From Candidatus Buchananbacteria bacterium (lineage in GTDB: Bacteria; Patescibacteriota; Patescibacteriia; Buchananbacterales; UBA6539), in contig JBAYLH010000001.1 of NCBI GenBank assembly GCA_041664165.1, forward strand, positions 9,469 to 73,468: a stretch of DNA of 64,000 nucleotides. Reading direction: 5' to 3'. Under the pieces are notes generated by a model, which had not been told where the DNA came from, did no database searches, and saw nothing but the letters and a program-made list of their open reading frames with translations. Both the position numbers and the translations under genes were made by a program. How positions within the stretch are numbered: the first letter of the stretch is position 1; the number at the start of each line of letters is the position of its first letter. Below are positions 14,084 through 45,345 of the stretch, in pieces.

Positions 14084-14089
14084 CGTCTC

Positions 14090-14168
14090 TACGAATTACA
14101 AATAAATACGAATATACAAATAGACTGCCCGAAATTCGTATATTCGTAACAATTCGTAATTTGTAGCT
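14090..14168. repeat. Palindromic intergenic repeat element (family 'tacgaatatacaaata...aaattcgtatattcgt')
   Basis: acgaatatac pairs with gtatattcgt. A near-identical copy lies at 45215-45265. Confidence 0.5.
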
Positions 14169-14662: not shown

Positions 14663-15946
14663 CTACCGTCCTACTACCCTACCCCCCCCCCACTTACTAA
14701 TTAAATACTTTTTTCCTTTTAACTTCTCCGGCAGGTACTCCTGATCCTCTTGCCAGTCGTAGCTTGGCGAATACTTATAATCTTTGCCGTAATTCAAATC
14801 CTGCATCAGCTTGGTCGGCGCGTTGCGCAAATGAAGCGGCACCGGTTCGTCCATGGTCTCTTTCACATCCTGTTTGACCTGGCCATAAGCCTGGTAAACT
14901 TCAACTGACTTTTTGGCCCGCGCCAAATAGACAACGCATTCCGCCAAGGCAATATCACACTCCGGCATGCCTAAAAAATGAGCGGCCTGGTAAGCGGCAA
15001 CGGCCAAAGGCAGCGCCGCCGGATCGGCTAAACCGATATCTTCAACCGACATCCGAACCAGCCGCCGCGCGACATAAAGCGGGTCTTCGCCGGCCTCCAG
15101 CATCCGACCCAGCCAATATAACGCCGCATCGGCATTGCCGCCGCGAACGGATTTATGCAGCGCCGAAATAATATTATAATGCTGCTCGCCGGCTTTGTCG
15201 TATAAAAAACTGGACTTCTGCAGCGACTCTTTGATTATCTCTTTATCTAAAATGATTTTACCTTGCGAATTAGGTTTAGTCGAGTTGACGGCAAATTCCA
15301 AGGCATTTAACGCCACCCGGCCATCGCCATTGGCAAGACTGGCTAAATAACGAATCAGTTTATCGTCAGCGTCAATTTTTAACTTCGGAAAACCGGTCTG
15401 AACCGCCCGCTGGATAATCAATTCTAAATCATGCTCCGACAGCTGGTTTAAGACAAAAACCCGGCTGCGGGAAAGCAAAGCGGAGATCACTTCAAAACTC
15501 GGATTTTCCGTCGTCGCCCCGATTAGAGTAATCATCCCCTGCTCAACATAAGGCAAAAGCCCATCTTGTTGGGCTTTGTTCCACCGGTGGATTTCATCAA
15601 TGAATAAAATTGTCCGCTGGCCGTTAAATTTACGCCGGTCGGCCGCCAGCTTGATAATTTCCCGAAATTCCTTAACCCCGGAGCTAACGGCGGAAAGCTG
15701 GACAAAATGAGATTTAGTCATTTTGGCGATAATTCGCGCCAACGTACTTTTGCCCGTGCCCGGCGGACCCCAAAAAATCATGGACGGAATTTCATCGTTT
15801 TCCATGGCCTGGCGCAAAAGCTTGCCTTCGCCGACAATTTCTTTTTGGCCGACAAAGTCAGCCAAGCTTTCCGGCCGCAAACGGTCAGCTAAAGGCGCAT
15901 TACGCTTGATATCTTGTTGAAATTGTTGGTCAAATAGATCACTCAT
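14663..15946 (-). CDS. rarA: Replication-associated recombination protein A (AAA+ ATPase RarA/MgsA)
   Basis: WGPPGTGKSTLARIIA Walker A. Start taken as MSDLFDQQF at 15946. The track ORF extends to 15970 only by reading into the inserted GC-rich element. Confidence 0.85.
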   Translation of the reverse strand: MSDLFDQQFQQDIKRNAPLADRLRPESLADFVGQKEIVGEGKLLRQAMENDEIPSMIFWGPPGTGKSTLARIIAKMTKSHFVQLSAVSSGVKEFREIIKLAADRRKFNGQRTILFIDEIHRWNKAQQDGLLPYVEQGMITLIGATTENPSFEVISALLSRSRVFVLNQLSEHDLELIIQRAVQTGFPKLKIDADDKLIRYLASLANGDGRVALNALEFAVNSTKPNSQGKIILDKEIIKESLQKSSFLYDKAGEQHYNIISALHKSVRGGNADAALYWLGRMLEAGEDPLYVARRLVRMSVEDIGLADPAALPLAVAAYQAAHFLGMPECDIALAECVVYLARAKKSVEVYQAYGQVKQDVKETMDEPVPLHLRNAPTKLMQDLNYGKDYKYSPSYDWQEDQEYLPEKLKGKKYLISKWGGGRVVGR

Positions 15947-15952
15947 ATTTTT
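15883..15952. repeat. Direct repeat copy 1 (about 68 bp, includes rarA codons 1-21)
   Basis: ggtcagctaaaggcgcattacgcttgatatcttgttgaaattgttggtcaaatagatcactcatatttt. Repeated at 16116-16183. Confidence 0.8.
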
Positions 15953-16115
15953 GAGCCCGCCCCGCACCAAGCCTATATTTGAACCCTGATATCAAACTGG
16001 CTGAGCCGGAGACCTGCTTCGCCAATGATTAAGACTGGGGGGCTAGTCAAGGCAGGCGACTTCGCGCGAACCAAACTTAAATTTTAATTAAACTTAATCG
16101 CGGGCTTTGGTGCGG
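15953..16115. mobile_element. 163-bp GC-rich insertion with 11-14 bp terminal inverted repeats (MITE-like), flanked by a ~68-bp target duplication
   Basis: Left end gagcccgccccgcaccaagcc. Right end cgcgggctttggtgcgg, reverse complement ccccgcaccaaagcccgcg. GC content is far above the local background. Confidence 0.5.
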
Positions 16116-16183
16116 GGTCAGCTAAAGGCGCATTACGCTTGATATCTTGTTGAAATTGTTGGTCAAATAGATCACTCATATTT
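16116..16183. repeat. Direct repeat copy 2 (orphan copy of the rarA 5' end)
   Basis: Identical to 15883-15952. Reads into the element instead of into rarA. Confidence 0.8.
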
Positions 16184-16185
16184 TA

Positions 16186-16222
16186 TAGTGACATGTTACA
16201 TGTTACATGTCACATGTCACTT
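16186..16222. repeat. Tandem array of the palindromic hexamer ACATGT (5 copies)
   Basis: gtgacatgttacatgttacatgtcacatgtcac. Confidence 0.5.
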
Positions 16223-16249
16223 ACTTACTACCTGTTACTTATTTCTAAT

Positions 16250-16942
16250 TTATTTACCAAATCTCCTCTGCCTCTTATCATACTCGGCAATAATTAAATC
16301 TAAATCTTTTTCACCAAAATCCGGCCAGGTTTTTTTAATAAACATAATTTCCGAATAAACGGATTGCCAGGTTAAAAAATTGGAAAGCCGCTTTTCGCCG
16401 GAAGTTCGGACAATCAAATCCGGATCGGCAATACCCTGAGTCCAGAGATTTTTAGCAATCAACTCTTCCGTAATTTTTTTGGCCGGTGTTTTTTTGGCGG
16501 CGATTTTTTTAACCGCTTGCAAAATATCAGGCCGGCCGCCGTAGGAAACGGCGAGATTAAATAAAAGCTTATGGTTATTTTTAGTTTTAACCTCGGCTGA
16601 CTTAATCATTTTTTGGATATCAGGGGCTAACCGTTTTATCTGGCCAATGACTCTGACTTTTACCCCTTGTTTAGCCAATTGGCTGATATCTCGGCTTAAG
16701 GCCAGGCGAAAAAGATCCATCAAATAGCTTACTTCTTCTTTGGTGCGATTCCAGTTTTCACTTGAGAAGGCATAAACCGTTAAAACCTTGATTCCCCGGT
16801 CAATACACCACTGGGCAACCTTTTTCATTTTGTCGTAGCCTCGGCGATGGCCTTCCAAGCTCGGCAGACCCTTACTTTTGGCCCAGCGGCGATTACCATC
16901 CATAATAATGGCTAAATGGACTAAAGAGGGTTTTTGGTTCAT
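16250..16942 (-). CDS. uppS: Undecaprenyl-diphosphate synthase (isoprenyl transferase)
   Basis: LAIIMDGNRRWAKSKGL and RTSGEKRLSNFLTWQ motifs. Confidence 0.85.
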   Translation of the reverse strand: MNQKPSLVHLAIIMDGNRRWAKSKGLPSLEGHRRGYDKMKKVAQWCIDRGIKVLTVYAFSSENWNRTKEEVSYLMDLFRLALSRDISQLAKQGVKVRVIGQIKRLAPDIQKMIKSAEVKTKNNHKLLFNLAVSYGGRPDILQAVKKIAAKKTPAKKITEELIAKNLWTQGIADPDLIVRTSGEKRLSNFLTWQSVYSEIMFIKKTWPDFGEKDLDLIIAEYDKRQRRFGK

Positions 16943-26860: not shown

Positions 26861-28699
26861 TTAGCGCGCAACCTTCACCGATGCCAAACTCCCGGCAATC
26901 GTCGGCTCGTTGGAGCAAGGATTGCATAGCGGCGGCTCGACACCGCTTGGTATCAGGATTGCCAGCACTTCGGTCAAGTTGGCGTCGTGGTAGTCAGTTT
27001 CGATGTCGCACAAAAACGTACTATCCGCGTTAATAGTCGTCAACGGCCGGTTCAAGTATGGCTTGATCCACCAAGACCCGTAAGCCTTGATGTAAACCGC
27101 TACCCGGCAATCAGCGGGGTTGACGCCACTCACCTTGCCTTGCATCAGGCTAGTACTGCCGGCTGGCGGCAAATAGGTGATTTCAATGCTCGGCACCGTT
27201 ATTATCGGCGGCCAGATTGGCACTGCCAACTGCCAGCCAAAGTCGCTGACCGTTACCACGGTTTCGCTGTTATTTTGCGGACCGTTGTTATCGCTCAACC
27301 ACAGGTTGAAGTGAAATGCCTCATTGCCCGGAACTGGAATGGCTTCCCGGTCATACACCCAGGAACGCACCAGTTTTTCGGCTGGCGGCAAATTCGCCAA
27401 GGTATAGCGGCCGTAATAGGTCCGAAATTCGACATAAGTCGACTGCCACACCAAATAGTGGGTAATGTCCGGCGCCGCGTCCGGCAGCGTAACGTAATAA
27501 CGCTGGACCATGCCCAGCCAAAACGGGTTGATGGCAAACTGGGCGTTATCCGAATCGTTTGCGTTCCCCCACCGGCTGAACTCGAAGTCGAACTCCTTGT
27601 GCTTGATCATTTTCTCCGCATCCGACCAGGTAAAAAGGCCGAAAGTCAGATTCGGATCAAGTAGGTCAACGCGGCCGTGAGTCGAAAAGCAGTAAGTACC
27701 GTAGCCCAAGGATTCTTCGAGAAAAACCTCGCTGCAGTACCAATTGCCGCCAAGTTGGCGCAGGGCCAAATTGATGCCCGAGGAGTCTATCCAGACGCTG
27801 TTTTCCGTGTCGGAGAAGAAGTTCTGGCCCGGATCAATCCGTTGTCCCTCGTCGCTTCGCTTGACCGTCCATGTTCGGCCGGCAAAAGGAATCCGGCGAA
27901 TCGGCAAAATCACTTTCTTGAGCACCGCCGTGACGGTTCGATTGGCCGTCATCGTGGTCGTCGTCGGATTGGCATGAATGTTTGCGACATTGCCAGTCCA
28001 GTAATCAAATTGCCAGCCTTCGGCCGGGTTCGCTTTAACCGTAACTACGGTTCCTTGGTTATAGCGAGCGCTTGACGGCACCACCTCGCCAGATCCGCTC
28101 GGACTAACCATCGTGGTCAGCAAATACGTTGTCGGATTGACCGTAACAAATACCGCCGTGATCGTCCGATTGGCCGTCATCGCCAGCGTCGTCGGATTGG
28201 TAGAAACGTCGGCAACCTCGCCGGTCCAATGGTCAAACTGCCAGCCAGCGGCTGGACTTGCCGTCAAGCTAATCTCTTGGCCGTAAGCAAAAGTGCCACT
28301 GGCCGGGTGGACTGAGCCGCCGTTCGAAGGAACCGCCGCCGTATTCAACTCAACCTCGGCCGGCGGTTCGGTGATGGTAACATTAACCATCTGCTGATCG
28401 ACAATGCCGATGGGGCCATTGAGCATCAGGAAAAAACTGCTCTTTCCAACTTGCCCCATCGCCCTAACCGACATCGTGTTGCCAGTGATACCAACCTGGA
28501 CATATTGGCTGTCAATACCAGTCACACTCCAGGTCAAAATCCGACCAGCGCCGTTTTGGATGTGACCACTCAAGTTGATAGTACTTTCGCCCATCGGCGT
28601 CAGCACTAAATCTGAAACAGGCGGAGAAATCTTGGTCGGATGAGGGCACCCCGCCAAAGCCAACATCACAACGATTACTACCAACATTTTCTTGTACAT
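26861..28699 (-). CDS. Lipoprotein with two InlB-B-repeat (Flg_new-like) domains and a GH16-like glycoside hydrolase domain; GC-rich (~58%) cassette v
   Basis: LALAGC lipobox; duplicated GWQFDHWTGEV / GWQFDYWTGNV segments; EFDFEF fits the GH16 ExDxxE catalytic pattern. Confidence 0.55.
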   Translation of the reverse strand: MYKKMLVVIVVMLALAGCPHPTKISPPVSDLVLTPMGESTINLSGHIQNGAGRILTWSVTGIDSQYVQVGITGNTMSVRAMGQVGKSSFFLMLNGPIGIVDQQMVNVTITEPPAEVELNTAAVPSNGGSVHPASGTFAYGQEISLTASPAAGWQFDHWTGEVADVSTNPTTLAMTANRTITAVFVTVNPTTYLLTTMVSPSGSGEVVPSSARYNQGTVVTVKANPAEGWQFDYWTGNVANIHANPTTTTMTANRTVTAVLKKVILPIRRIPFAGRTWTVKRSDEGQRIDPGQNFFSDTENSVWIDSSGINLALRQLGGNWYCSEVFLEESLGYGTYCFSTHGRVDLLDPNLTFGLFTWSDAEKMIKHKEFDFEFSRWGNANDSDNAQFAINPFWLGMVQRYYVTLPDAAPDITHYLVWQSTYVEFRTYYGRYTLANLPPAEKLVRSWVYDREAIPVPGNEAFHFNLWLSDNNGPQNNSETVVTVSDFGWQLAVPIWPPIITVPSIEITYLPPAGSTSLMQGKVSGVNPADCRVAVYIKAYGSWWIKPYLNRPLTTINADSTFLCDIETDYHDANLTEVLAILIPSGVEPPLCNPCSNEPTIAGSLASVKVAR

Positions 28700-28865: not shown

Positions 28866-28939
28866 TGGCAGGGGCGGAAGGTGATGCTCCCTCGTCTGCG
28901 GTTTTGGAGACCGCCGTTCTACTGTTGAACTACGCCCCC
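28866..28939 (-). tRNA. tRNA-Trp (anticodon CCA), intact copy with unusual T-loop
   Basis: GGGGGCG acceptor, D-arm GTTC-AACAGTA-GAAC, anticodon arm GCGGT-CTCCAAA-ACCGC, 3' CGCCCCT-G-CCA (CCA encoded). T-loop AGCATCA is atypical. Confidence 0.65.
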
Positions 28940-28954
28940 GTAAAAAACTCCAAC

Positions 28955-29206
28955 CTATTTTAATCCTAATCTTTTCATTAATGCCATATACACTGAACCA
29001 CTTGATTTTATTCCTTTTTCTCTTTTTAACGCCAGATATTTATCATTATATGCTTCATAATACAATAATCTTGGGTTTTTGTCCTTGGTTGTTTTTACCC
29101 GACCTGACAAATGTTCCTCTAACCTCTTTTTAAGATCCGAGGCATAACCAATATAAAAATCTTTATTTTTAATACCATCAATTTTTAATAAATAAACGTA
29201 GTACAT
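28955..29206 (-). CDS. Small GIY-YIG nuclease family protein (copy 1)
   Basis: MYYVYLLKIDGIKNKDFYIGYASDLKKRLEEH is the GIY-YIG motif. 83 aa. Confidence 0.75.
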   Translation of the reverse strand: MYYVYLLKIDGIKNKDFYIGYASDLKKRLEEHLSGRVKTTKDKNPRLLYYEAYNDKYLALKREKGIKSSGSVYMALMKRLGLK

Positions 29207-29211
29207 AATCG

Positions 29212-29312
29212 ACTAGTTTTGGAGACACCCGTCGCTCGCGAGCCACGTCGCACGTGTGCGACTGTGGCGAGCAACGGGTGAGACCGCCGTTCTACTGTTG
29301 AACTACGCCCCC
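29212..29312 (-). pseudogene. Orphan 5' copy of tRNA-Trp (positions 1 to ~41) interrupted by a 58-nt GC-rich hairpin insertion in the anticodon stem-loop
   Basis: gttttggagaccgccgttctactgttgaactacgccccc duplicates 28895-28939. The insert at 29227-29284 is bounded by a 5-bp repeat gagac. Confidence 0.55.
29227..29284. repeat. 58-nt GC-rich imperfect palindrome (hairpin element) inside the orphan tRNA-Trp
   Basis: cacccgtcgctcgc-gagccacgtcgcacgtgtgcgactgtggc-gagcaacgggtg. Confidence 0.55.
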
Positions 29313-29495: not shown

Positions 29496-29560
29496 AAATT
29501 AGGTATTAGGTTATTAGGTGTTAGGTTGCTAGGTATTAGCTGTTAGTTTTAAAGCCAACA
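29496..29560. repeat. (ACCUAA)n-type leader repeat abutting the rpmG start codon
   Basis: Coding strand reads ...acctagcaacctaacacctaataacctaatacctaatttATG. Confidence 0.5.
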
Positions 29561-29666
29561 GCTCCGATTTTAAGCTGGGACGACCTACTTATTTATCCCG
29601 ACTTCTTTATTTTTTTTAAACAATTCGGTACGTCGGGACAAAACAGTTGTTCCACCTGCCCTTGCC

Positions 29667-29700
29667 TTAGCCGACGGGGTGATTTGAACACCCGACCAAT
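29667..29700 (-). pseudogene. tRNA 3'-half-like fragment (T-arm GGGTG-TTCAAAT-CACCC)
   Basis: Canonical T-arm with no matching 5' half nearby. Confidence 0.3.
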
Positions 29701-29729
29701 AGTTTATCCCGATTTTATTTAAAATTTTA

Positions 29730-29803
29730 CTGGAGCCGGGGACAGGAATTGAACCTGCGACCAATAGTTTACAAAACTACTGCTCTACCGCTGAGCTACC
29801 CCG
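29730..29803 (-). tRNA. tRNA-Thr (anticodon UGU)
   Basis: GCCGGGG-TA-GCTCAGCGGTAGAGC-A-GTAGT-TTTGTAA-ACTAT...GCAGG-TTCAATT-CCTGT-CCCCGGC-T-CCA. Confidence 0.85.
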
Positions 29804-29860
29804 GCTCGGGCTAAGGCGGGCAGGTCTACCACTGAACTATCCCGGCTCGCGGGAGCAGGT
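29804..29860 (-). pseudogene. Diverged partial duplicate of a tRNA 5' end (acceptor plus D-arm), possibly a decayed tRNA-Gly
   Basis: gagccgggatagttcagtggtagac resembles the adjacent gagccggggtagctcagcggtagagc. Confidence 0.35.
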
Positions 29861-29865
29861 CTAAA

Positions 29866-29950
29866 TGGTGGGTGGAGCAGGATTCGAACCTACGTAGGCG
29901 TAAGCCAGCTGATTTACAGTCAGCCCTCGTTGACCGCTTGAGTATCCACC
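29866..29950 (-). tRNA. tRNA-Tyr (anticodon GUA), long variable arm
   Basis: GGGTGGA...GCTGA-CTGTAAA-TCAGC, variable arm TGGCTTACGCCTAC, T-arm GTAGG-TTCGAAT-CCTGC, 3' TCCACCC-A-CCA. Confidence 0.85.
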
Positions 29951-29960
29951 CATGGATTTA

Positions 29961-30200
29961 TTATTTCAAAATACTATCTAAATATTTTCTGCCTTGACCT
30001 GATTTTAAAAATTTTTCTCTTTTCATTGTCTCAGCTCTAGTTGAAAACTCTTCTTGATAAACTAACAGCCAAGGTCTCCTTCCTTTGGTATATCTGCACT
30101 TGCTCCGATTATGCTCCTCTATTCTCTTAACGACATTTTCCGTACTGCCAATATACCTATTTAAATATTTTACACTTTTTAAGACATAAACATAATACAT
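29961..30200 (-). CDS. Small GIY-YIG nuclease family protein (copy 2)
   Basis: MYYVYVLKSVKYLNRYIGSTENVVKRIEEH. Start taken at the internal Met at 30200; the track ORF runs to 30266 through GC-rich hairpin DNA. Confidence 0.7.
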   Translation of the reverse strand: MYYVYVLKSVKYLNRYIGSTENVVKRIEEHNRSKCRYTKGRRPWLLVYQEEFSTRAETMKREKFLKSGQGRKYLDSILK

Positions 30201-30202
30201 AG

Positions 30203-30314
30203 CAACATATATATAGTCAGCAAGGTTGGGCGGATTCCCCGCCAGAGCCTGTCTGTCGGCAGACAAGGCGAGTGCGCCTCTTGAGCCAGAGGCTCATCTG
30301 TTTTCGGTATGAGG
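30203..30314. repeat. GC-rich hairpin cluster between GIY-YIG copy 2 and the orphan tRNA-Tyr
   Basis: gcctgtctg-tcgg-cagacaagg; gcctct-tgagcc-agaggc. Confidence 0.4.
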
Positions 30315-30436
30315 CGCAGAACCTACGTAGGCGTAAGCCAGCTGATTTATGATGCCAAAGGCACATCCGCCTTACCCGCCTCTGGTGTGGCCTTCCGGCG
30401 GACAGTCAGCCCTCGTTGACCGCTTGAGTATCCACC
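30315..30436 (-). pseudogene. Orphan degenerate 5' copy of tRNA-Tyr with a 53-nt GC-rich insertion in the anticodon loop (insert 30350-30402)
   Basis: Matches 29884-29950 except for the T-arm end and the insert tgatgccaaaggcacatccgccttacccgcctctggtgtggccttccggcgga, which sits between anticodon positions 34/35. Confidence 0.55.
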
Positions 30437-30503
30437 CATGGATTTATTATTTCAAAATACTATCTAAATATTTTCTGCCCTGGCCTGATTTTAAAAATTT
30501 TTC

Positions 30504-30579
30504 TGGAGCCCACTCGCGGATTTGAACCGCGGACCTACTCCTTACCATGGAGTTGCTCTACCAACTGAGCTAAGTGGGC
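30504..30579 (-). tRNA. tRNA-Thr (anticodon GGU)
   Basis: GCCCACT-TA-GCTCAGTTGGTAGAGC-A-ACTCC-ATGGTAA-GGAGT-AGGTC-CGCGG-TTCAAAT-CCGCG-AGTGGGC-T-CCA. Confidence 0.85.
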
Positions 30580-45207: not shown

Positions 45208-45214
45208 ATTTCTA

Positions 45215-45265
45215 CTAATTACGAATAAATACGAATATACAAATACCTAAATTCGTATATTCGTC
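45215..45265. repeat. Palindromic intergenic repeat element, second copy
   Basis: attacgaataaatacgaatatacaaatacctaaattcgtatattcgt. Confidence 0.5.
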
Positions 45266-45345
45266 CAAATTAGTACTTCGCAGTGAACAAAAATGTTATA
45301 AATTAACACTAATATCATACTATCTTTTGGCTTTTTTCGCAACTC

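Follow-up and report, generated by a model that had tools for sequence, protein, structure and literature searches.

A Bracketed Element at the 5′ End of rarA in Candidatus Buchananbacteria, a Candidate Non-Autonomous Mobile Cassette

The rarA Locus

The DNA analysed here, referred to throughout as the window, is a stretch of 64,000 nucleotides from a Candidatus Buchananbacteria genome (GenBank assembly GCA_041664165.1, contig JBAYLH010000001.1, positions 9,469 to 73,468). It contains rarA, encoding replication-associated recombination protein A, and the 5′ end of this gene is present twice, with a 158-bp non-coding segment between the copies. On balance we judge it probable that the segment is a non-autonomous mobile DNA cassette that entered the 5′ end of rarA, and that it belongs to a widespread family of Patescibacteria type; taxonomy was checked for a few loci of the family.

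In the sense of the gene, the order is uppS, a palindrome, an orphan rarA start (16184→16116), the element (16117→15960), an 8-nt spacer, CGGGCTCA, and the intact rarA (Table 1). The duplicated sequence is an exact direct repeat of 69 nt, the copies being spaced 233 nt apart; it is the longest exact repeat within the window. The repeat spans rarA positions −5 to +64 and includes codons 1–21, as a preliminary description had proposed with a length of ~68 bp (copies of 68 and 70 nt). The segment between the copies (15952–16115) is 164 bp long, rather than the 163 bp first given, and its GC content of 51.8%, against 42.8% for the window, makes it only moderately GC-rich. The inverted repeat described earlier at both ends of the segment is present and is 11 nt long, CCCCGCACCAA on one side and TTGGTGCGGGG on the other; it grows to ~14 bp if one bulge is allowed. 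These arms also define a large family of elements. The right arm’s final two G residues fall inside the direct repeat, and the two bases with which rarA continues there are also the first two of the element, which sets the length of the duplication at 67–69 nt. The statement that this is far beyond the length of a classic target-site duplication (TSD) stands.

The insertion junction lies after codon 21, between GCTGA and CC. The orphan start codon opens a frame of 31 codons (16179→16084) that reads MSDLFDQQFQQDIKRNAPLAD and then ten codons of the element, where it stops, much as the preliminary description had it; the product is probably meaningless. The 158-bp element encodes no open reading frame (ORF) of its own. 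Its distance from the intact gene had been given as 5 bp; in fact the arm ends 13 nt upstream of the rarA ATG, and the 5 nt are the upstream part of the repeat. The palindrome reported just upstream is also real; it lies between uppS and the orphan start and has 17-nt arms that are 94% complementary. Inside it, on the minus strand, is a promoter-like sequence, GTGACA-16-TAACAT (16220..16193), whose predicted start (~16184–16186) coincides with the first base of the duplicated segment.

Table 1. Features of the rarA locus and of the two GIY-YIG/tRNA units in the window.
Feature	Position	Strand	Remarks
Intact rarA (427 aa; replication-associated recombination protein A)	14663..15946	−	ORF; homologues are annotated as RarA / AAA ATPase and carry MgsA_C and related Pfam domains
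Repeat copy A1, −5 to +64 of intact rarA	15883..15951	−	Continuous with remaining gene
Spacer CGGGCTCA, 8 nt	15952..15959	−	From right arm (gene sense) to A1
Bracket element proper, 158 bp	15960..16117	−	Non-coding; ends conserved (~24 nt left, ~20 nt right, gene sense), interior variable
Terminal inverted-repeat arm CCCCGCACCAA	15960..15970	+	
Orphan ORF, 31 aa	16084..16179	−	21 RarA codons plus DPAPKPAIKFN-stop from the element
Terminal inverted-repeat arm TTGGTGCGGGG	16107..16117	+	Last 2 nt shared with A2
Repeat copy A2, orphan rarA start (−5 to +64)	16116..16184	−	Behind the native upstream region
Near-perfect palindrome (GTGACATGT repeats)	16186..16222		37 nt; between uppS and orphan rarA start
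uppS (undecaprenyl diphosphate synthase)	16250..16942	−	Conserved neighbour upstream of rarA
GIY-YIG ORF (Pfam PF01541)	28955..29206	−	In unit 28866–29312
Orphan tRNA-Trp 5′ part	29280..29312	−	
GIY-YIG ORF (Pfam PF01541)	29961..30200	−	In unit 29866–30504
Orphan tRNA-Tyr 5′ part	30319..30349 and 30402..30504	−	

Independent Assemblies and Empty Sites

The same order of orphan, element and gene is found, identically, in a 257-kb MEGAHIT k141 contig from the European Nucleotide Archive (ENA), L084. Over 7.2 kb, this contig differs from the window at a single base, position 14691, where a Trp codon is replaced by a stop, and an independent Logan contig (L082) has the same base there as L084. Since the two share this single-nucleotide polymorphism (SNP) against the window, the window represents a third assembly of the same population. 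In addition, a Logan k=31 unitig that bears uppS (L081) terminates exactly 30 nt into the orphan copy, as expected if the 69-mer has two left contexts, at which a de Bruijn graph must branch. On this assembly-level evidence, the structure is real and independent of the assembler.

The difference at position 14691 also bears on the protein. With TGG (Trp), as in the window, RarA has 427 residues; with the stop of the ENA and Logan assemblies it has 418, and the usual length in relatives is 415–419. Judging from the sequences, the TGG may be either a read-through variant or an error in the window record.

Starting from the protein database, we located relatives of RarA and retrieved the contigs that encode them. 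Five of them (L001, L085/L086, L208, L209 and L210), with RarA identities of 81–88%, carry just one rarA start and lack both the element and the palindrome; the filled site is found in the window and in L084. In three of the five, uppS lies directly upstream of rarA, and the uppS–rarA spacer of the relatives is 13–97 nt of unrelated, AT-rich sequence. The insertion junction falls within the codons of a conserved NAPLADR motif, with the target sequence GCTGACCG also conserved. In related genomes, a conserved site thus exists in both filled and empty form, the pattern expected of a homing element. These empty sites, together with arms that recur throughout a family, bear out the earlier reading of the segment as an inserted element.

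Composition, Folding and Database Matches

Searches of the window and the region against Rfam, at gathering and E-value thresholds, return only tRNAs, and the best sub-threshold match over the region has an E-value of at least 1.2. The element falls below the gathering thresholds of the Rfam 15 families, among them group I introns, signal recognition particle RNA, tmRNA, 6S RNA and ribozymes, and 20 + 6 related loci yield only tRNA and rRNA. Thus, the segment matches no known non-coding RNA family in Rfam. BLAST with the element finds no further copy in the window or in 80 rarA loci. Viral contigs, searched with three patterns, and plasmid and phage collections give nothing, or chance matches within coding regions. 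Of the internal hairpins mentioned in the preliminary description, the closing stem and some others do fold; a functional RNA is not supported, as the z-scores of single-sequence folding against shuffles are −1.2 and −1.5, and the interior is poorly conserved among the three members of the subtype to which the element belongs.

We find it scarcely credible that the segment is not mobile at all but a native structured leader or small RNA gene, the repeat being a local duplication or a mis-assembly. Such a reading would be at ease with the stem and hairpins that fold and with the single copy in the window. It would have to reconcile these with the absence of the segment from all five relatives, the lack of an Rfam match, the unremarkable z-scores, and the homologous elements that lie at trmD and tRNA-Leu rather than at rarA. 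Two assemblies that differ by a SNP agree on the structure, the break in the k=31 unitig fits a true repeat, and a simple tandem duplication should have left two copies of the segment, where there is one. Together, these observations effectively exclude a native leader RNA or an assembly artefact.

A Family Defined by Its Arms

A metagenome scan with the pattern CCCCGCACCAA-N(120-150)-TTGGTGCGGGG, both arms exact, detected at least 119 loci, comprising 97 unique elements, hereafter brackets; for 22 specified bases we estimate a chance expectation of a handful of matches. The family-level claims made here rest on this one scan and its at least 119 loci, and the proportions of the classes are biased by the requirement for exact arms and a spacing of 120–150 nt. 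The elements are 142–172 bp long, and the arms, exact in the 97 unique loci, usually extend for a further 3–6 nt. In 0.9 Mb of fetched flanks, arms occur almost exclusively as pairs and hardly ever singly, with a density of ~2 per 9 kb in the selected loci; two or three brackets share a locus in L097, L133, L134 and L147. The same arms are also found around loops of 4–16 nt, forming ‘empty’ palindromes. In one contig (L104, 7307–7582), a bracket of 275 nt with one mismatch per arm encloses two tRNA genes, so the size of the cargo is not fixed, and a scan with a spacing of 120–150 nt captures a slice of the family.

The interiors of the brackets are not homologous to one another. Across the 97 unique elements, the sequence of the arms is conserved and does not covary, and mismatches are without G-U bias. 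Because the arms are conserved rather than covarying while the interiors are unrelated, the sequences point to the arms being DNA sites read by a protein and not an RNA stem. An RNA processing stem was accordingly rejected as the principal explanation, there being no covariation and no strand bias of G-U versus A-C. A DNA uptake sequence or a repetitive extragenic palindromic (REP) sequence was rejected on copy number, as the 64-kb window has two arms.

Brackets with neither a tRNA nor a 5S rRNA gene inside hold AT-rich sequence together with a small hairpin whose loop is C-GAATA-G, and some hold nothing. They fall into several subtypes, one of them cloverleaf-shaped, and their interiors have no match in Rfam. 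Class-2 brackets show no consistent orientation to neighbouring genes. For that reason, and because the rarA element has no promoter-like site facing rarA, a mobile promoter was rejected.

Three recurring motifs accompany the non-tRNA brackets. The first is a cloverleaf-like interior motif of ~70 nt in L178, L132, L102, L142, L169, L183, L193 and L197, which has no Rfam match. It runs from GGCGGCACAC through a GAATA-loop hairpin, GTCCGCC-GAAG-GGCGGAC and a TATTC-loop hairpin to GTGTGCCGC. The motif is conserved from locus to locus and shows compensatory changes; it may be a small RNA or else a DNA site with symmetry. The second, often seen beside these brackets, is a conserved hairpin, ATTGYYGGC..CGAGCGAAGC..GCCRRCAAT, ending in AATAGAA, which lies ~60 nt to the left of the bracket in L201, L204, L187, L133, L159, L175 and L167, and which, after a T-run, directly adjoins one arm of class-2a brackets. 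Either the hairpin belongs to a composite element or it is a favoured target. The third is CGAATA, the hairpin loop in most non-tRNA brackets, which turns up again in L135 and L158, in flanks as well as interiors. The window itself has a repeated intergenic palindromic element, rich in ACGAATA/TATTCGT, at 14088–14166 and 45211–45283. CGAATA may be a shared protein-binding motif.

Brackets within tRNA and 5S rRNA Genes

About one-third of the brackets hold an intact tRNA gene, with at least 15 specificities represented, and several hold a 5S rRNA gene. In every one of the 34 unique tRNA brackets, a tRNA that matches the inner gene in type is split between the two flanks, its 5′ part on one side and its 3′ part on the other, and the outer and inner genes have the same orientation (p ~6e-11 if orientation were random). 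An invertible promoter was rejected on account of this co-orientation. A 5S gene is found inside a 5S relic in the same arrangement (L098). The interruptions are in the loops of the outer tRNA, as follows. The D loop is interrupted in L090, L155 and L198. In six tRNA-Met loci, it is the anticodon loop (…ACT TTCA, bracket, CAAG TAA…). In tRNAs for Asn, Lys, Gln, Tyr and Ser, the T loop is interrupted, GGG CCTG, bracket, TGAA AATCC replacing TTCG. The junctions were inspected for the bulge-helix-bulge motif, and an intron of that kind was rejected as they are without it.

The outer copies are in various states. Those of L103 and L108 still fold perfectly, and compensatory changes in the acceptor stem set them apart from the inner copy; those of L094, L106 and L140 are badly decayed. 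Our reading is that the resident gene, now disrupted, is the outer copy, and that the inner copy is presumably its working replacement.

The position of the junctions in stem-flanked loops brings to mind a mini integrative cassette, that is, a circle with a lox- or dif-like site formed by the arms back to back, inserted into stem-loops by a tyrosine or serine recombinase encoded elsewhere. The joined ends would make 11-nt inverted arms around a short spacer, a classic core-site design; the insertion points are loops flanked by stems, sublocations of the kind that tRNA-targeting integrases use; and in many members a 2-nt TG is common to both junctions. A gene of the excisionase-type HTH_17 family lies 230 nt from the bracket of L105 (1497–1694), a single locus: it was found neither at other bracket loci nor in the window. 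Conservative recombination, however, should not lose 2–4 nt of a loop, nor create a duplication of 15–69 nt with a spacer. Neither the loci nor the window yielded a recombinase gene, and the identity of cargo and target gene is left unexplained. A circle of this kind is, in our opinion, very improbable.

The rarA Subtype at trmD and tRNA-Leu

The elements of two loci, L105 and L134, are homologous to the rarA element at both ends, over ~24 nt (CCCCGCACCAAAGYCCRCGA) and ~20 nt (AGGCTTGGTGCGGGGCRRG), and the interiors of the three diverge. L105 is a Buchananbacteria-like contig, as judged from the relatives of its TrmD. Its order is an orphan, …aataaatttatATGATACAGTTCGA, the element, CAAG and ~20 nt, and then attaatttttATGATCCAGTTTGAT…, the start of an intact trmD. 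The duplication is ~25 nt, and the 15 coding nucleotides have three differences, all synonymous and at third codon positions. In L134, a TTGACA/TATAAT promoter is followed by the orphan GGCATGTGGCGGAAC, the element, CAGG and 24 nt, and an intact tRNA-Leu(caa); the orphan corresponds to nt 2–16 of tRNA-Leu, so that 15 nt are duplicated. Thus, all three members, at three unrelated genes, consist of an orphan 5′ end, the element, a short unrelated spacer and the intact gene, and relative to the gene the element faces the same way in each. For both protein genes, rarA and trmD, the orphan frame enters the element as D-P-A-P-K. No N-terminal duplication of this kind, and no long flanking repeat, was seen at the other brackets.

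Two further observations concern L105. The public TrmD call (P0121, 363–1217) is 22 residues longer than expected, 259 against 237 amino acids, and is an annotation artefact of the insertion. In addition, GACATAA repeats (1385–1445) lie beside the bracket.

These three loci invite an alternative, in which the element alone was transposed by a transposase acting in trans and binding the terminal inverted repeats (TIRs), cuts ~67 nt apart being filled in to give a TSD of 67–69 bp. It adds that, in an essential gene, only insertions that duplicate back past the gene start would survive. Two rarA copies that are 100% identical, conserved TIRs around a variable interior, as in a MITE (a miniature transposable element with inverted repeats), and nine members with a clean 4-nt direct repeat, TCAA, are all in agreement with it, as is the variation of the duplication over the three subtype members (15, ~25 and 69 nt). 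Fill-in does not explain the unrelated spacers of 8, ~22 and 28 nt between the element and the second copy. Neither is it clear why the left ends of all three duplications should lie within ~14 nt of the gene start, which we estimate at ~0.002 if the stagger is random, and transposition of this type cannot yield an intact tRNA nested inside the arms. We know of no transposase family with duplications this long and variable. Both the transposition and the selective survival that it invokes seem to us unlikely.

The GIY-YIG/tRNA Units of the Window

The window contains two further loci with the layout of an orphan, an insert and an intact gene. In each, a small GIY-YIG ORF is flanked by the orphan 5′ part of a tRNA on one side and by the intact tRNA on the other, for Trp in one unit and for Tyr in the other. 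The anticodon loop of both orphan tRNAs is interrupted by a palindromic, GC-rich insert of ~52 nt. The duplicated Tyr sequence, 103 nt long and 98% identical, begins immediately beyond the 3′ end of tRNA-Thr, its upstream neighbour; for Trp, the duplication begins at tRNA position +1. The likeness in layout drawn by the preliminary description is therefore correct, and it extends to trmD and tRNA-Leu. The shared insertion mechanism that it suggested is not established: the element has no ORF, BLAST finds no sequence in common between it and the units, and GIY-YIG genes are not enriched near brackets. They occur at 6 of ~100 bracket loci, ~4 of them within 600 nt, which is roughly background, and those nearest to the rarA element are 13 kb away. 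At one locus (L118), a GIY-YIG gene is 66 nt from a bracket holding tRNA-Trp.

The tRNA cluster has other tRNA-like fragments, located between the annotated tRNAs at 29545–29865. One, ggggtgatttgaacacccgaccaatagttt, resembles the T arm and anticodon arm of tRNA-Thr, and another, gcaggtctaccactgaactatcccggc, resembles a 5′ half. Their resemblance suggests that there may have been repeated rounds of disruption and replacement in this cluster. A 104-nt repeat at 27924/28152, of similar spacing, was also considered and set aside as unrelated, being an internal repeat of a protein.

It could be argued that the small GIY-YIG nucleases of this genome drive homing by cutting at rarA codons 17–23, or in tRNA loops, with repair from an element-bearing allele. 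The 164-bp segment would then be an ORF-less derivative of the tRNA/GIY-YIG units. The layout of the two units and the position of the L118 gene are in keeping with this, and the motif that is targeted is conserved and belongs to an essential gene. To our knowledge, small YhbQ-like GIY-YIG proteins are not proven homing enzymes. Furthermore, the element and the units have no common sequence, GIY-YIG genes are found within 600 nt of ~4 of 100 brackets, about the chance density, and the conserved inverted arms go unexplained. A precedent does exist in phage T4, where the free-standing GIY-YIG nuclease SegB of the tRNA cluster drives preferential inheritance of that region (PMC2330249). All considered, both the homing by these nucleases and the derivation of the segment from their units appear quite unlikely.

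Proposed Mechanism

We return to the proposal that the rarA segment is a mobile cassette without mobility functions of its own. The unit added at rarA would be the element, the 8-nt spacer and a second copy of rarA from −5 to +64. The gene after the element would be complete, and the original start would be stranded upstream as the orphan. Transcripts begun in the native upstream region would cross both orphan and element to reach the intact rarA and, because of this read-through, the insertion would be near-neutral. The duplicate gene part is thus what may make the insertion tolerable. Movement would be supplied in trans, as the element encodes nothing.

As for how the unit arrived, we suggest that the element and adjacent gene sequence could have been copied in, guided by homology to the same gene. 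One option is a homing-like event in which a nuclease makes a break that is repaired from an element-bearing template; another is a single-strand intermediate that pairs with the target through its gene-derived part. Homology-guided copying would account for the unrelated spacers, the fixed orientation, the match between cargo and target gene, and the loop positions. Across the family, disruption and replacement would be achieved in two ways: tRNA and 5S members carry an intact copy inside the bracket, and the subtype of the window duplicates the 5′ part behind the element. It is tempting to go further and to propose a new class of Patescibacteria mini-cassettes that ‘disrupt and replace’ essential single-copy genes, the target being set by homology of the carried piece and not by a protein. 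This is a tentative extension, and we are inclined to doubt it.

The four nucleotides before the arm are often TTCA, TTTA, TTGA, TCGA or CTGA, though not always. A CRRG tetranucleotide follows the other arm in many family members, and the CGGG of the rarA spacer fits it. The sequence CGGGCTC of this spacer is also present in L152 and L153, where CTC is tRNA T-stem sequence.

A number of observations weigh against the mobile-cassette proposal. The window has one copy of the element, with two arms. The two rarA starts are 100% identical and so give no sign of a foreign rescue copy; such identity would be equally compatible with a duplication made on the spot. The rule for the subtype comes from three loci. 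Most non-tRNA brackets lie between genes, with no duplication flanking them. The junction nucleotides vary, with a 4-nt direct repeat of TCAA flanking 9 of the 97 members and CYTG/TGAA flanking others, and some members have lost 2–4 nt of the tRNA loop, so that one simple cut-and-paste rule does not fit all junctions. No ORF family is enriched within 4 kb of 100 loci. A crude tblastn search for IS200-type TnpA, with a consensus query, or for Xer-type recombinases found none in the window or the loci, and no transposase, recombinase or nuclease is linked to the family in the loci examined. Nor was a larger bracket around a protein gene seen in the 0.9 Mb of flanks. The favoured mechanism leaves unexplained the origin of the first unit, the enzyme, the varied junctions, and the acquisition of a copy of exactly the gene that is interrupted.

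Significance

Patescibacteria, also known as the candidate phyla radiation, have tiny genomes with single-copy tRNA and rRNA genes, and yet small selfish elements are found inside those very genes. If the proposal is right, mobile DNA can cheaply offset the damage that it does by means of a spare gene copy, either brought along or made on arrival. It would also explain orphan gene fragments and ‘extra’ tRNA pieces that confuse annotation, such as the long TrmD call, and it would suggest that core RNA genes (tRNA and 5S) are undergoing replacement by foreign alleles. Should insertion be guided by homology, it would constitute a third route for selfish DNA into essential genes, besides that of introns and inteins and that of integrases that restore gene ends. 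The conserved arms of 11–17 nt offer a handle for finding the enzyme that moves the elements, and that enzyme would be a candidate tool for targeted insertion. For rarA itself, the consequence is probably nil because the gene stays intact.

Comparison with Known Systems

The literature covered, which is incomplete, holds no account of these arms or of nested tRNA-in-tRNA cassettes, and the family is apparently undescribed. Several known systems share part of its properties.

Bacterial MITEs are the closest in form. Like them, the elements are small (~120–170 bp) and non-coding, with conserved TIRs of 11–17 bp, a variable interior and many unrelated locations; some copies are flanked by a 4-nt direct repeat, and short ‘empty’ palindromic versions exist. 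Unlike MITEs, they have no matching autonomous element or transposase that we could find, and the copy number per genome appears low (one in 64 kb). Moreover, MITEs have a short TSD of fixed length, whereas the flanking duplication in this family is 15–69 nt, with a spacer, and insertions in tRNA, 5S and protein genes come with an intact or partial duplicate of the interrupted gene. REP sequences and REPINs are extragenic, number hundreds of copies per genome and depend on a REP-associated tyrosine transposase (RAYT); many copies of the present family are inside genes.

The palindrome-associated transposable elements (PATEs) of the IS200/IS605 group and one-ended transposition of the IS91 type provide another parallel. 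The ends of the family have polarity: a tetranucleotide resembling TYNA precedes one arm and CRRG follows the other, CAAG being a target of IS91. Insertion is into sequence prone to single-strandedness, the loops, and flanking spacers of 8–28 nt lie beyond one end. The ends of IS200/IS605 are separate subterminal hairpins without long-range TIRs, in contrast to the single long-range inverted repeat of the family, and neither IS200/IS605 nor IS91 is known to duplicate a target gene. A crude test found no Y1 or Y2 HUH transposase in the window or the loci.

With respect to targets, the strict preference for conserved sites in small RNA genes is shared with the Dada DNA transposons of eukaryotes. 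These insert in tRNA and small nuclear RNA genes, encode a DDE transposase, generate TSDs of 6–7 bp and need multicopy targets (PMC3706591). The targets of the family are mostly single-copy, and a replacement copy accompanies the insertion. Patescibacteria also have tRNA genes with group I introns, at position 35/36, which are ribozymes and of a different kind (PMC13011429).

Islands and prophages with tRNA-targeting integrases likewise use a tRNA stem-loop, restore the gene with sequence that they carry and leave a displaced fragment behind. Their length runs to kilobases, they encode the integrase, and it is the 3′ part of the gene that they rebuild, by a conservative crossover, whereas the elements of the family are ~150 bp, have no integrase and supply a whole inner gene or the 5′ part. 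The junctions of the tRNA brackets, which lose 2–4 nt or add 4 + 4 nt, are also unlike the identical core repeats of att sites.

Finally, homing-endonuclease replacement cassettes enter a conserved essential gene, bring a replacement for what they displace and leave the displaced part as an orphan. An element of the Allomyces mitochondrial atp6 gene, for example, reportedly carries a foreign atp6 C-terminus. The two GIY-YIG/tRNA units of the window have this layout. The rarA element differs in that it has no nuclease gene and replaces the 5′ rather than the 3′ end, and it has the conserved inverted ends that such cassettes lack, in bacterial hosts whose tRNA genes are single-copy.

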